A stretch of 62,995 bases of DNA from Phycisphaerales bacterium (lineage in GTDB: Bacteria > Planctomycetota > Phycisphaerae > WQYP01). The DNA is taken from positions 1 to 62,995 of the forward strand of contig DAIDJN010000030.1 in assembly GCA_027451365.1 (NCBI GenBank). The letters are read 5' to 3'. The position numbers are program-made. Position 1 is the stretch's first letter; the number at the start of each line of letters is the position of its first letter. Positions 51,001-57,000 of the stretch are shown piece by piece.

Positions 51001-54000
51001 ATCGACCGCCAGACCGCCAAGGATCTGCAAAAGCGCATCAAAGACCTTGGCTTAAAGGTGAATCCGTCCATTCAGGGCGACACGCTCCGCGTCAGTGCGC
51101 CAAAAAAAGATGACTTGCAGGCCGTGATGGCCGACTTGCGCGCCAGGCCGCCGGAAATTCCCGTGCAGTTCACCAATTATCGTTGAAATATAAAACCCGT
51201 TCACAAACGGCTGATCAGCAGTTCCCGGATGAAAATAATCTCTTTGGGTAAGTCCCCGGCCAGCTTCAGAAAAAGTTCTTCCTCGGAAAGAATCTCGGCC
51301 TTGAACGCTTCCACATCAATTTTCTGCGCTGCCTCAATATCCTTTGGACGGAGTGCCAAACCGTTGAGATTGATGTCCGTGGGGCGCGGCATCCAGCCCA
51401 GCACCGTTTCCATCGCGTAGGCCCGTCCGTGGCAGCGGTTGATGATCCATTCAAGAATCCGGATGTTTTCACCGAAGCCGGGCCAAAGAAATTCGCCGTG
51501 CTCATTTTTACGGAACCAATTGACATGAAAAATGCGCGGGCAATCACTCATTTTGGCGCGCATGCGAAACCAGTGCAGAAAATAATCGCGAATGTTGTAA
51601 CCAATAAATGGAAGCATGGCCATGGGATCTCGCCGCACCACGCCCACCTTCCCGCTGGCGGCGGCGGTTGTTTCACTGCCCAGCGTTGCGCCCACATATA
51701 CACCGTGCATCCAGTTAAAGGCCTGATACACAAGTGGAATCACGCTCGAACGCCGGCCCCCGAAAATGATCGCACTGATTTCCACTCCGGCCGGGTCATC
51801 GGCCGCGGGGTCCAGCGCCGGATTGTTCCGCATGGGTGCGGTAAAACGGCTGTTCGGGTGGGCGGCCTTGCGCCCGCTTGCCGGCGTCCAGGGCTGGCCG
51901 AGCCAGTCGGTACAGTGCGGCGGCGGTTCGGGTGTCTTGCCCTCCCACCAGACGTCGCCATCCGGTAGCAGCGCGACATTCGTGTAAATGGTATCGCGGG
52001 CCATGGTCGCCATGGCATTGGGGTTGGTGGTCTGGTTCGTGCCCGGCAACACGCCAAAATAGCCCGCCTCCGGATTAATGGCTCGCAGCCGACCGGTGGC
52101 TTCATCCACCCACATCCAGGCAATATCATCGCCAACGGTGGAAACGCGCCAGCCCGCCTGTTTGTAATTTTCCGGAGGAATCAGCATGGCAAAATTGGTT
52201 TTCCCGCACGCGCTGGGAAATGCCGCCGCCACGTAGGTCTTTTCGTCGCCCACTTGCACACCACTTATCAGCATGTGTTCGGCCATCCAGCCATGGGCGA
52301 ATCCCTGAAAGCTGGCAATTCTAAGCGCCATGCACTTTTTACCCAGCAGCGCGTTGCCACCGTAGCCGGAACCGAAACTCCATATTGTATTATCCAGCGG
52401 AAAATGACAGATGTATCGCTTATCCGGGTCGCATTGGCCCACGCTGTGGAGACATCGCGTGAATTCGTCGCTTGTGCCCAGCATAGTCCACGCCGCTTCA
52501 CCCATTCGCGTCATAATGCCCATGCTGGCCGCCACATACAGGCTGTCAGTCAGTTGAATGCCCACCCGCGCCAGCGGCGAACCGATCGGCCCCATGATGA
52601 AAGGTATCACATACAGCGTGCGCCCGCTCATGCAGCCGTCAAACAGCAAACGCAGCTTTTCGTACGCATCGCGACTCTGCATCCAGTTGTTGGTCGGGCC
52701 GGCCATATCGCGCGCCGCCGTGCAGATGTAGGTGTTATGTTCCGTGCGGGCCACATCGTTGGGGTTGGACCGGTGCAGATAGCAGCCGGGCAATAAAGTC
52801 TGGTTCAGCCGAACGAAAACGCCCTCCGCGACTCCTTGCTCCAGCAGTTGGGACCTTTCGGCCGCCGAACCGCACAGCAATACCACACGGTCGGGCTTGC
52901 ACAGTGCGGCGCATCGCTGAATCCATTCGGCGGCATGCGCATTCATTCCCGCATAACGGGAATTTGCCGAGTCCGCCGGTCGGCTTTTGTGTGCGGCTTC
53001 ATCCTGCTGACGCTGCCACATTTTTCCCACAGGGTCACTGGCATCGGTGGATCGCATCATGATAAACCTTTCCGGGGTTACTGTTTTGTTTGCGTCCGCC
53101 GCCCGGTCCGAAAAATACCGAATCGTTTCCATTTTTCAGGATACCATTTTTTTTCGCATTCGGAAAGAGTCTGCCGCGACCCTCCCGAGGCGATTGCTCA
53201 GGTGCCGGCGGCGAAGACCCGAATCCAGTGGCGGAATTTTGTGCCCCACCGCGGATTCCCCGAAATAAGATGCTGAAGGACTGTGGTTTGGGTGTATTGC
53301 TCGTGTTTTTTTTGATTCCGCCAGGCGTGGTATGAATCAACTCAAACCGAGCCGGACGAATGGGTGCTATGCCCCTGTCCACTGCGCCGACGGGCTGATA
53401 TGACCATGGCGGCGGCAACATCCTGCCCGCCACGGGTATGCGGCCGGTCCGCATACTGAACAGATTGTTATCGTTTAAGTCAGTTTCGGCAATAGTGGCC
53501 CGGCGAGTTAATCTACGCTGCGCAGCGACATGCCGAATTCGCCTAGTTTTTTCTTTATTTCATCCAGACTCGTCTGTCCGAAATTTTTCACATCCAGCAG
53601 TTCCGCCTCGGTTCGGGCGGCAATATCACCCAGCGTCTGAATTTTCAGCAGTTCCAGGGCTTTGCTGGCACGGACCGAGAGTTCCAGTTCCGCCACAGAT
53701 TTGTTGAGAATCGCCGGCGGAACGGTAGCCGCGACCGCCTTGATGGCTTCGCGCCGCTGTGCCTGCAGGCTTTCTTCCGCGGCCTGACCCAGGCGAAGAC
53801 CCTTGCGCGTCAGGAGTTCTTTAATTTCATCAAGGCTGGTTTCGCCAAAATTCTTGTACGCCAGCAGTTCCGGTTCGGAAATCTTCAGCAGGTCGCCCAG
53901 ATTGCGAATATTCATTTTCTTCAGGCAGTTGCGGGCGCGAACGGAAAGTTCAAAGTCGGTAATCGGCTGTTCCAGCAGCATGTTCCGCGGGACAAACCGC

Positions 54001-57000
54001 TTTTCAGATTCTTCAGCAATGACCATATCGAAGGATCCATCCACATGGCCGTAATACCGCCGCCCGATTTCATGGTTGGGCTTGATGGTCAGCAATCGGT
54101 GAAGTGTTTCCTCGGCTTCGTCGTAGCGGCCGGCATCTTCATACAGCACGCTAAGGTTCAGCAGAACGCCTTCGCGGGCCGGCTGTTTGTCGGCCAGAAT
54201 TTCATAAAGTTCGGTGGCCCGTTCATCGGACCCGCCCAAATCAAGATAATAAGCCAGTTTGAAAAGGACTTCCTCATTTTCAGGATCTGCGGCGTAGGCC
54301 TCTTCCAAAAGGTCCAGAGCGGCCTGCACGTCGCTGTTGGATGCGGCCTTCATCGCGCGTTCATAAAGGGCCTTGCCGGCGGAAATATCACGTTTAATTG
54401 CGGTTTCAACCATAGTGTTGCGTCCTTACGTTGGGCGTTGGAAGCCGGGCCGCAGGTCACCAATGACCGGCGCGGGCGTTCATGTCTGGTCTGCATTCGG
54501 GGCGGCAGGGCCGCCTGCCGAATCAGAGGCAAGCCCTCTAATTTACCCGTTTTATGATATTTTTACAACTATAGGTGCTACTACTGCGCGCGGGTGAAAT
54601 GGCTGGTATCCCCGCCACGGTCGTCGCCGAGGAACGTCGCTGCATTTCCGGCAACCGCAACCCGCCGACGGGTATCCCATGAGCGGAGCCTTTCCGGGCC
54701 AACCCCTTCACATCAGGCAAATGCCGTTACGGCCAACCCGCCTTCTTGCAAATGTCGCGCGACCGGATACCAAGACGGGCGACGATTTTCACGCAACAAC
54801 CCGTCCGGTCGATTCACTACTGCCTCCCTGAGGCCTATGCCCGATCAACATATCAGAATTAACCCAGCCGGGAAATGCCCGCCGGAAGGCGTTGGTGGCA
54901 GGCTTCCCATTAACTGCGCTCCCTTTTCTCACACCTCCGGGATGTCAACGCTTTATTTCCAGCGTCTCGGTTTTGGACCGCCCGGCCAAGTATGCACGTA
55001 TCCCCTTAAAGACCGCCACAATGCGCGGGTTTAAACTCCCGTTGTTCGCGATCCTTTCTAATGCCGTCCCCGGCTCATTTAATCCCATTTTCACTCGGAT
55101 TTTTGCTCCATGCCTCAGCAGCACAAGTACAATCCGGGCCTTCGCATTGCTGGCGCGGGCCGCCGTAACCAGGGGTGTCTGTGTCGATGGCGTTGGGTTA
55201 GGTGCGTTCGGGTCCGCCCCATGATTGAGGAGCCATCGCACGGTATAGACTTGTCCGGAATGCGCCGCGTAGGAGAGGGGGGTCCAGCCTTCGCCATCCT
55301 TGGAATTTAGAATTCTGGGATCCCTAGCAGCGATGCCTCGGAGCAATTTGACGTTGCCGATTCCGGCGGCGACGAACACATCTAAAATAAATCCGCGAGT
55401 GCCCAGGAAGCGAACTAATTGTGGCCGCCGATTCCAGGCCGCCCACTGTATGAGGGACATCCCGGAAAAAGTTGTGCGAGCGTGGCGCAGAAGCAGAAGC
55501 TCAACAACGCCCTGCCGGCCCCTCTCCGCGGCCAAAAATATCGGCGGAACTCCCTCTGCATCCGCAATATCGCGGTTCAGAAGTCCCGGGTCTTCTTTCA
55601 GATAGCGATTAACTACGCCCGCATAGCCGTGCGCAACTGCATAAGAAAACGACATCGCATGGAGATAGACAAATACCGCAATCAATATTGACAATGAGGC
55701 GGACGCAAGAGCAACACAAAGCCCAATCAAGCGGCGATATCCCAGGCGAGACCATTTATCCGGAATAAATTTCGGCCGAGCAAACATAATAATATTTTGT
55801 TCCATTTCCCGATGCGTGAAATCTCATTTAACCTGTATCCTCGTGCCCGTAAATGGCAGCCCCGCTGTCGTTTCACTTGCATATCCGCATACAGGTGCGC
55901 CTGTTATTCCATGAATTGCCTTCAGGAAGCTTAGGCCGGCGGGGCAATGCTCCGGTTAGCTTCCGTTAGCCGCCGGCATGTTGCTGCCGCGCCCGGCCCT
56001 ACAACTTGTTGGCCACCCGCCGACGCAGGGCCAAGCCGCCGATCAGGGCTAATCCGCCAACCGCGGCTAAAAGGCCGGAGCCAGGGATGGGTGTGGCAGC
56101 CTCCAAGTTAAATGTGGCCGAAGACCCATCGCCCGTGGCGAACTGGAGACCATCGACGAGGCTCTTTAGCGTGGTGGCATTGGATGCCACAGTAAGGACG
56201 ATGTACTTTACAGTCTGGCTGTCATAATTTGCGCTAGACTCAACTTGCTGCAGCGTTTGGTAGTTTGCGGTTGAAAGAAACGTACTATTAACGGCCGTCA
56301 GGAACAACTGGTCGCTGCCGCTGCCAGTTGTCGCTTGGGTCCAATTGTTCGTTGCAGCAGAAGCTTGGTATGATCCACTAGAGGTCAAAAATGTGAGGCG
56401 GTCGTGGTACCAACTCGCGGCGTCGTTTGATCCCGTGGTATTCGTATAAATGTTAATATACCAGTCGCCCTGTACAGCATTAAGCTTGTCGGTCCAATAG
56501 CTGAGGCTGGTGAGATTGTTGCCGGTGCTGCCCAGTGTTACGGGATTAAAACCGAGGAAAGAGGGGCTGAGATAAAGCTCAAGTTTATTCCCATTTGTCT
56601 CCCAGGAACTGTTTCCATAGCCGGGCGCGTAGCTTCCGGTGTAGCCGGTGGGTGCCGCATCCCCGCTGCTAAGTGCCGCGTCGATGGGATACAGCGTCTG
56701 TGAAACCGTTACGCTCGCCGGTGCCGAGGCCACCCCCGCTGAAAGCAACCCTGCGCAAGCCACGGCCCCCGCTAAACCGATTCCGATTTTTCCGCTCTTA
56801 CTGCTCACGGTAGTCTCCTCGTAGTTCCGGGCATGGCCAATGCGGCGTGTGAAATCATCAGCCGCGATGTCTGCCCAACAAACCAAACGAAATTCCTGAA
56901 CCGGCCGGTTGGAACAATCCACCGGGAAATGCGGCCGGAAATCCGCTGTTGTCTTTTCAAATAACGCATCATCGCCCAAGCTTGGTACCCGGCGAAAATA

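Follow-up and report, generated by a model that had tools for sequence, protein, structure and literature searches.

What would a cell do with a protein that carries two C-terminal domains of the RNA polymerase (RNAP) alpha subunit behind a TPR module? Textbooks present the alpha-CTD as the part through which bacterial RNAP recognises promoter DNA on the upstream side and is reached by activators, and to our knowledge it has been studied solely as part of RpoA. The question is raised by a gene in a 62,995-nucleotide stretch of DNA (contig DAIDJN010000030.1 of assembly GCA_027451365.1, hereafter the window) from a Phycisphaerales bacterium of the phylum Planctomycetota.

Architecture of the gene and its product

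The features of the locus are collected in Table 1. The open reading frame is a real gene, with an in-frame stop four codons 5' of its ATG and AAGGA about 9 nt before it, and encodes a protein of 301 amino acids. Scanning for promoters and terminators yielded no useful signal for this gene; the upstream intergenic region, which has an AT-rich patch at about 54535-54575, showed no consensus sigma-70 promoter. A search of positions 52900-55100 against Rfam returned no match, a tRNA search of positions 52000-57000 found none, and tRNA-Thr was found at none of 40 related loci, so that it is no trait of the family.

Table 1. Features of the gene and its upstream region in the window.
Feature	Positions	Strand	Evidence
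Whole gene, TPR and double alpha-CTD protein P0001	53508..54413	-	ORF list, translation; 301 codons and stop
Upstream intergenic region, presumed promoter and 5' leader, 531 bp	54414..54944	-	no ORF match
TPR module, residues 10-130	54024..54386	-	TPR_19, TPR_14, TPR_2; AF2; Foldseek
Linker from TPR to alpha-CTD 1, residues 131-143	53985..54023	-	AF2 pLDDT; family consensus
Alpha-CTD copy 1, residues 144-202 (Pfam core)	53808..53984	-	Pfam; six-frame match 78.7 bits
Linker between alpha-CTDs, residues 203-233	53715..53807	-	AF2; weak sequence conservation
Alpha-CTD copy 2, residues 234-292 (Pfam core)	53538..53714	-	Pfam; six-frame match 72.3 bits

Two stretches of the protein match RNA_pol_A_CTD (PF03118) at 142.5 bits, far above the gathering threshold of 23.8, the better of them being copy 1. 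The N-terminal part belongs to the TPR clan, with 34-residue helix pairs above the Pfam thresholds for TPR_19 (residues 65-114; 43.5 bits against 25), TPR_14 (36.8 against 23.5) and TPR_2 (33.9 against 27). No alpha-NTD family is among the 25 matches listed of 28, and the NCBIfam rpoA models (TIGR02027 / NF003513) align only over their profile positions from about 222 to 338, with 126-138 bits against cut-offs of 228-302 (for example 138.5 against 302). A six-frame search found three alpha-CTDs in the genome, two of them in this protein and one in the true rpoA, which encodes 353 amino acids with a single CTD on contig C80. The profiles and this search thus bear out a preliminary description of the locus, in which a TPR module and two alpha-CTDs were reported without an alpha-NTD and the true rpoA was placed elsewhere.

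In the AF2 model the TPR module forms three hairpins (helices within residues 10-110) and a capping helix (115-130), six helices and a cap in all, with a pLDDT of 96-98. Residues 10-130 superpose on the three-repeat consensus TPR CTPR3 (1na0; TMt 0.88, rmsd 1.7 A over 115 columns in Foldseek) and on HOP TPR1 (1ELW; TMt 0.82), from both of which most relatives differ by extending the array N-terminally to about seven to eight hairpins, as judged from a long-form model (a 444-aa relative; pTM 0.74). The two models differ in their linkers. Between the TPR module and copy 1 the short form has a pLDDT of 52 over residues 131-140, whereas the long form has an ordered helix (278-291; 83 and 94 for the ten-residue blocks of 271-290) joining TPR to copy 1. 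Between the two alpha-CTDs the short form has a helix at 210-228 with a pLDDT of 91-97, and its equivalent in the long form is disordered (about 50). The helix-hairpin-helix (HhH) fold matches 9zum, the Caulobacter alpha-CTD solved on AT-rich DNA, with 65-68 columns superposing at an rmsd of 0.6-0.9 A and 48-49% identity, in a Foldseek search whose query was the whole-protein model and whose output does not state which copy is aligned.

Distribution and conservation across the phylum

Exactly one match at E<=1e-30 is present in 143 of 151 Planctomycetota genomes (G000 included), so that the single copy claimed earlier for nearly all members of the phylum was found again in a new sample. Three of the eight exceptions hold pieces of the gene, either masked by a 200-N stretch over copy 1 (G059) or at contig ends (G084 and G006), two have rpoA-like matches only (G137, which is 99% complete, and G124), and the last three (G010, G090 and G110) are genomes of 66-73% completeness. 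No family-level match was found in 251 Verrucomicrobiota, 61 Hydrogenedentota and 51 Chloroflexota genomes (363 in total). Of ten divergent representatives, two had a taxon name, Planctomycetota in one case. The 6448 database relatives reported previously were recovered among 8000 scored candidates, and their names do stop at the domains, the fullest being 'RNAP subunit alpha C-terminal domain-containing protein'; precomputed domain strings also list PF26169. Literature searches found no published study of the TPR and two alpha-CTD family.

The layout is common to the family: a TPR array, a conserved linker (consensus RARLxLKDA..MYYDE), copy 1 with ELSVRxRNCL ... KNFGETSL, and then copy 2. Identity between our protein and 143 family representatives is 36-83%, and these motifs are invariant or nearly so. 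The preliminary description had spoken of a full-length orthologue; one orthologue per genome stands, but the usual length, shared by 116 of 149 representatives, is about 425-470 aa (about 440 aa in most relatives), and the protein of the window is a short form without some 150 N-terminal TPR residues. Among 41 longer proteins 36 differ only by more TPRs. Two apparent fusions, P0307 (alpha-CTD and TGT) and P0310 (VWA, alpha-CTD and sigma-54), were set aside as they look like read-through or frameshift chimeras. The metagenomic P0308 (two alpha-CTDs and then Sigma70_r4) belongs to a different family, and neither it nor the metagenomic P0130, with ten alpha-CTD repeats, has the TPR and two-CTD layout.

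Conservation is concentrated in copy 1. The DNA-contact residues of the E. coli alpha-CTD are R265, N268, C269, G296, K298 and S299, and copy 1 has five of the six, R159, N162, C163, G190 and S193 aligning with R265, N268, C269, G296 and S299. Over 147 relatives these five positions are kept in 147, 140, 144, 147 and 145 sequences, respectively. D153 and E155 of copy 1 align with E. coli D259 and E261, of which the former is D or E in 145 relatives and the latter is kept in 143; on the 287-type face 144 relatives keep E286 and 133 have either E or D at the E288 position. Copy 2 is looser: it keeps the R, G and S of the list (R248, G279 and S282), at the N268 position 126 of the 147 relatives have K or R, and at the C269 position 94 have C and 41 have A. 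It is absent at one of 41 loci, representing a lineage without copy 2, and weak at four. Our alignment thus agrees with the earlier assignment of the 265 determinant in both copies. The accompanying worry that an E or Q in place of K298 would weaken DNA binding rests on a numbering slip of one residue: the E or Q is the K297 equivalent, K298 aligns with T192 of copy 1 and T281 of copy 2, and T also stands at this position in the phylum's own RpoA CTDs (six of six).

Across the same six genomes copy 1 has a mean pairwise identity of 0.63, against 0.55 for the CTD and 0.56 for the NTD of RpoA, and its terminal branches are the shortest of the domain tree. Copy 1 is under a housekeeping-grade constraint and is better conserved than RpoA's own CTD. 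Mean identity over the TPR module is low (0.34), as would be expected of a generic scaffold no less than of a specific dock. In the tree the RpoA CTDs form a single group (100/94), separate from both copies; with 65 columns and no possible root, it is silent on whether the copies came from a planctomycete rpoA.

The family gene is probably essential in Planctopirus limnophila, the one planctomycete with a transposon map. Plim_0602, labelled TPR (COG0457) and RpoA (COG0202), is in the essential-gene figure of that screen, the call being taken from the figure source data, with an insertion index of 7.4e-4 against cut-offs of 0.013-0.25 (PMC10632474). It is a probable counterpart of our protein, matched by its domain labels and a gene length derived from the insertion index rather than by sequence. 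The neighbouring Plim_0603 also has a very low index, so that polarity could mimic essentiality of Plim_0602, and the screen's own paper mentions that DNA condensation can lower insertion counts (PMC10632474).

A proposed accessory transcription factor and its alternatives

The reading that we favour, at a probability of roughly 40%, is that the protein is a cytoplasmic general transcription factor, specific to this lineage, that makes contact with promoter DNA. Copy 1 would act as it does in RpoA, with R159 and the neighbouring N, C, G and S reading the narrow minor groove of A/T-rich DNA, and its acidic patch of D153 and E155, the '261 determinant', could touch sigma region 4 when copy 1 is bound beside a -35 element. 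The contact between alpha-CTD and sigma region 4 is weak and DNA-dependent in E. coli, which makes conserved acidic residues thin evidence for it. The TPR module, of the three-repeat peptide-binding type, would hold the protein on a partner, most plausibly RNAP or an RNAP-bound factor, although we know of no RNAP-docking TPR of this kind. Docking on a conserved C-terminal tail of RpoA was considered and rejected, as the tails of six planctomycete RpoAs are not conserved. Copy 2 may serve as a flexibly tethered and less important second DNA contact. The protein would in this way supply extra alpha-CTD heads in trans. In the source genome and five relatives the CTD of RpoA itself retains R, N, C and G at its contact positions, from which we infer that the factor adds to the CTDs of RNAP and does not replace them. 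The preliminary description had likewise proposed that the protein could occupy UP elements or activator surfaces, with the TPR as its docking part. A bolder version, which we hold to be doubtful, is that an essential, trans-acting alpha-CTD pair takes a routine part in initiation throughout the Planctomycetota, with the TPR-docked subunit furnishing the third and fourth DNA-reading heads of RNAP.

Somewhat less probable still is a nucleoid-associated or architectural protein, whose two HhH heads would bind minor grooves with little sequence preference while the TPR recruits or bridges proteins, and which would help to organise the unusually condensed planctomycete chromosome. The models do place two DNA-contact modules on flexible tethers, the gene is phylum-wide and probably essential, and the DNA of Planctomycetia is described as highly condensed, probably by DNA-binding proteins (PMC10632474). 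The genomic context is also compatible, as it provides no fixed link to transcription genes: the neighbours in the window are, by Pfam, an ankyrin protein, PEPCK, DUF520 and HisG, and no transcription gene adjoins the family gene in the loci examined, which also counts against the reading that we favour. Nevertheless, the acidic 261-type patch and the E286/E288-type residues conserved in copy 1 suggest protein contacts beyond DNA, and the loss of copy 2 indicates that bridging by two heads is not obligatory. It is the context, too, that suggests an adaptor for recombination or repair, with the HhH heads on branched or damaged DNA beside RuvAB and the TPR on a repair partner. At 22 of 41 loci, drawn from at least 17 GTDB families, the gene is followed immediately by a co-oriented ruvA, which is thereby its most frequent neighbour; the gap is -1 to 121 nt in 17 of the 22, and ruvB comes next in about ten. 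We consider such an adaptor quite unlikely, since the link is broken in all five loci of the source's class, including that of the window, whose genome has ruvA on contig C19, and since the cluster runs on with spoIID, tgt, yajC and secDF and therefore looks like a housekeeping string rather than a functional module. Furthermore, the conserved residues are the promoter-DNA and sigma contact set, none being specific to junction DNA, and ruvAB is dispensable in most bacteria, whereas the family gene seems essential.

Two further explanations turn on the surface of copy 1, and we give little credence to either. Free alpha-CTDs might compete with those of RNAP for UP-like DNA or activators, making the protein a global damper or anti-activator; copy 1 closely mimics the RpoA CTD surface, and a protein without an alpha-NTD cannot join core RNAP by the alpha route. 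A pure competitor, however, is rarely essential, nor is it often constrained more tightly than its model, and the retention of the TPR throughout the phylum implies that the protein has its own partner. Alternatively, the copies might be mainly protein-protein modules that do not bind DNA and that link partners which usually hold the RpoA CTD, for instance NusA-type or Spx-type factors, to a TPR-bound client. The alpha-CTD is indeed a known protein-contact hub, the PDB matches include the alpha-CTD chain of 2jzb, which we take to be the NusA AR2 complex, and the 287-type face is partly kept. The best-kept residues, though, are exactly the DNA-contact set, and protein binding alone needs no such invariance.

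Relation to known systems and significance

Both copies belong to the same domain family as the alpha-CTD of RpoA (PF03118; 1COO, 1LB2, 9ZUM), with whose DNA-contact residues and acidic sigma-contact pair copy 1 agrees, but the protein is not an RpoA. It has two CTDs behind a TPR module where RpoA has one after a flexible linker, it has no route into core RNAP as alpha, and its gene lies outside any rpoA or ribosomal-protein cluster of the kind represented by rpsD-rpoA-rplQ in E. coli. Reuse of an alpha-CTD-like domain outside RNAP is seen in the BREX kinase PglW (NF033442) and the small protein family PRK07758 (NF005841), although our protein scores far below both cut-offs and the TPR and two-CTD layout is absent there. 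A parallel in logic may be offered by CarD and RbpA, the clade-specific, essential RNAP-binding general factors of Actinobacteria. Like them, the family is clade-wide, single-copy and probably essential, and by analogy one of its modules would sit on RNAP and another on promoter DNA; a sequence relation to either was seen in no search, and the folds too are unrelated.

What sets the family apart is that an alpha-CTD occurs twice on a separate TPR protein, single-copy across a phylum and under housekeeping-grade constraint. Its role can be tested in P. limnophila, for which genetic tools and a TraDIS map exist. Should it act instead in the nucleoid or in recombination, it would represent a new use for the alpha-CTD. 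If it is active at promoters, it would define a new class of general transcription factor and offer a way into planctomycete gene regulation, a subject on which hardly anything is known. Finally, should the bolder version hold, RpoA and a separate protein would divide the recognition of upstream promoter DNA in Planctomycetota between them, a division that we know of in no other bacteria.

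Architecture of the protein and its gene

The open frame comprises 301 codons, and this length is not an annotation artefact since an in-frame stop lies only four codons 5' of its ATG and an AAGGA sequence precedes the ATG by about 9 nt. A Pfam search of the encoded protein agrees with the preliminary description of a TPR module followed by two RNA polymerase alpha C-terminal domains (alpha-CTDs, here copy 1 and copy 2): RNA_pol_A_CTD matches in two stretches (142.5 bits; threshold 23.8), several TPR families match, among them TPR_19 at residues 65-114 (43.5 bits against 25), and no alpha N-terminal domain is found. 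NCBIfam rpoA models align to it through their C-terminal ends only, at scores far below their cut-offs. Scanning all 88 contigs of the assembly (93% complete) for the family gave three alpha-CTDs, two in this protein and one in the 353-aa product of the true rpoA, which lies separately on contig C80.

An AlphaFold2 model built from 144 family sequences (mean pLDDT 93.7, pTM 0.59) predicts the arrangement tabulated below. In Foldseek the TPR part of this model superposes on the three-repeat consensus TPR 1na0 (TMt 0.88), and an alpha-CTD-sized stretch superposes on the Caulobacter alpha-CTD 9zum, solved on AT-rich DNA, with an rmsd of 0.6-0.9 A at 48-49% identity.

Position of the gene, its upstream gap and the predicted structural elements of its product
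Feature	Position	Strand	Basis or remark
TPR and double alpha-CTD gene	53508..54413	-	301-codon open frame
531-bp gap upstream of gene	54414..54944		no ORF hit, tRNA, Rfam match or consensus promoter found
AT-rich patch inside the gap	~54535-54575		the one such patch
Six helices, three TPR hairpins	residues 10-110		AlphaFold2 model
Capping helix	residues 115-130		AlphaFold2 model
Linker	residues 131-140		AlphaFold2 model, pLDDT 52
Alpha-CTD 1	residues 143-203		AlphaFold2 model
Helix between alpha-CTDs	residues 210-228		AlphaFold2 model
Alpha-CTD 2	residues 233-292		AlphaFold2 model

The neighbours are an ankyrin-repeat protein upstream and PEPCK, a DUF520 protein and HisG downstream, and none of these four is a transcription gene. 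Sel1-repeat and ankyrin-repeat eukaryote-like proteins (57828..58946 and 54948..55805, both on the - strand) lie near each other upstream of the gene. A 326-aa protein at 56002..56979 (-) has no Pfam hit, and its C-terminus, judged by eye, resembles a PEP-CTERM-type sorting tail with a Pro-rich motif, a hydrophobic stretch and RRR.

Distribution and length forms of the family

Among 151 Planctomycetota genomes from 137 genera, the window's own included, 150 have a match at E<=1e-5 and 143 have exactly one at E<=1e-30 (34-52% identity, mostly over residues ~15-299), so that the single-copy, phylum-wide occurrence proposed earlier holds in this larger sample. A family-profile recheck covered five of the remaining eight genomes, the three others (G010, G090 and G110) being 66-73% complete. 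One of the five, G059, carries the gene with a run of 200 N placed exactly over copy 1 (L189, G059:C8), which made the genome seem to lack the gene when proteins were searched; G084 and G006 hold pieces of the gene at contig ends, and G137 (99% complete) and G124 gave rpoA-like hits only.

Other phyla were sampled around named genomes obtained by a 16S probe scan, and these searches were working, as the same query recovered rpoA in the centre genomes. Around Luteolibacter, 248 of 251 Verrucomicrobiota genomes gave one match (best E 3.8e-17); every match listed spans one CTD, in a frame no shorter than ~335 aa (~335-450 in most), and is read as rpoA, leaving no family-level match in the 251. 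At E<=1e-20 none of 61 Hydrogenedentota genomes and none of 51 Chloroflexota genomes (centre Longilinea) matched. These counts describe samples, with Chlamydiota and other groups near Planctomycetota outside their coverage.

An exhaustive search of representatives returned 300 clusters (50% identity) at E<=1e-30. Among the 149 representatives listed, 116 have lengths of 425-474 aa, and our protein aligns with their last ~280 residues, making it a short form without some 150 N-terminal TPR residues. Extra TPRs are the sole difference in 36 of 41 longer proteins. The model of one 444-aa relative (P0127; pLDDT 93.7, pTM 0.74) is helical across residues 18-273, some 7-8 hairpins, with an ordered helix between TPR and CTD1 and a disordered linker between CTD1 and CTD2. 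Close relatives (58-97% identical, 293-346 aa) belong to Phycisphaerales wherever the organism is named, and in the ESM Atlas every neighbour is a Planctomycetota cluster that shares both domain types. As noted in the preliminary description, database names go at most as far as the RNAP alpha subunit or its C-terminal domain: the family is recorded by its domains only and some relatives are "hypothetical". Full-text literature searches found no study of it.

Two metagenomic proteins carry alpha-CTDs in other settings. P0130 (1031 aa) has ten tandem RNA_pol_A_CTD repeats (PF03118, 452 bits, 10 stretches) together with SAP-like and SAM-like hits. P0308 (697 aa), a different free-standing architecture ~40% identical to the CTD pair studied here, has two N-terminal alpha-CTDs, then a Sigma70_r4 helix-turn-helix and then ~400 residues without a family.

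Inequality of the two copies and their contact residues

Across 41 loci two CTDs are present in 40, copy 2 being weak in four of these; it is lost in one lineage (L029, genome G132), where a 387-aa frame holds copy 1 as its one CTD. In L022 and L026, of the same GTDB family (f36), copy 2 is kept but weak (E 1e-11 to 1e-13). Mean pairwise identity, taken over the same six genomes for all domains, is 0.63 for copy 1, 0.56 for the RpoA NTD, 0.55 for the RpoA CTD, 0.46 for copy 2 and 0.34 for the TPR plus linker. In a short, unrooted tree of 65 columns copy 1 makes up a clade (98/98), the copy 2 sequences form a group (84/89) and the RpoA CTDs all fall together (100/94), and this separate grouping of the copies indicates a duplication older than the sampled diversity of the phylum.

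We aligned 147 family members with the E. coli alpha-CTD (NC_000913) and the genome's own RpoA, with residues assigned to the 265, 261 and 287 determinants after the E. coli literature.

Residues of the two copies at E. coli alpha-CTD contact positions (counts out of 147)
E. coli	Copy 1	Copy 2
R265	R159, 147/147	R, 146/147
N268	N162, 140/147	K/R, 126/147
C269	C163, 144/147	C 94/147, A 41/147
N294	N188, 147/147	N, 144/147
G296	G190, 147/147	G, 146/147
K298	T192, 142/147	T281, 133/147
S299	S193, 145/147	S, 141/147
D259	D153; D 126/147, E 19/147	E 66/147, D 53/147
E261	E155, 143/147	E 67/147, D 30/147

The E or Q earlier assigned to the K298 position of both copies, as a possible sign of weakened DNA binding, reflects a one-residue slip, for E191 and Q280 align with K297. 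Threonine also occupies position 298 in all six planctomycete RpoA CTDs compared (L001, L183-L187; loop FG(K/E)T(S/T)), which makes it a trait of the phylum's alpha-CTDs and not decay of this protein; in six of six Verrucomicrobiota RpoA CTDs (L177-L182) the residue is K, within NFGKKS. The difference may be a phylum-level change in the DNA-contact loop. The six planctomycete RpoA CTDs also retain R, N, C and G at the positions of contact, and therefore RNAP has not passed its own CTD function to this protein.

Possible roles in transcription

A Planctopirus limnophila transposon screen (PMC10632474) places both COG0457 (TPR) and COG0202 (RpoA) on Plim_0602, the real rpoA being Plim_0499, and includes Plim_0602 in its figure of essential genes (Fig. 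S3). Its insertion index there is 7.38e-4 against 0.14 for Plim_0601, with cut-offs of 0.013, 0.022 and 0.25; the value equals 1/1355, consistent with a gene of ~451 codons, the usual length of the family. Judged by these labels and not by sequence, Plim_0602 is probably orthologous to the family. Plim_0603 is also nearly insertion-free in that source, so polarity may lie behind the result.

The reading we favour, at a probability of roughly 0.4, makes the protein a general transcription factor in an accessory role. A/T-rich DNA upstream would be bound by the alpha-CTD heads, which might also contact sigma region 4, and the TPR would hold a partner such as RNAP; the likeness to CarD or RbpA would be one of logic only. 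A nucleoid-organising protein is, in our view, unlikely. A purely protein-binding adaptor and a decoy for the CTD of RpoA are each distinctly improbable.

A Ruv-linked recombination adaptor has to be weighed against gene context, for which ORFs were clustered in 41 loci of 14-15 kb (3.9 kb for the window's own locus, and 8 kb for one locus cut at a contig end). The next gene downstream is ruvA, in the same orientation, in 22 loci that span at least 17 GTDB families. For 17 of these 22 the inferred gap measures -1 to 121 nt; ruvB comes next in about 10 loci, and then spoIID, tgt, yajC and secDF. This run of genes has the look of a conserved housekeeping cluster. A tRNA-Thr was present in 0 of 40 loci, so an association of the family with that gene is not general. 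A Ser/Thr kinase takes the place of ruvA in five loci, and ruvA is downstream in none of the five loci of the window's class, its own genome carrying ruvA on contig C19. We hold little belief in such an adaptor. Taken together, the observations are consistent with a DNA-binding factor that is core and clade-specific, and of which copy 1 would be the functional heart.
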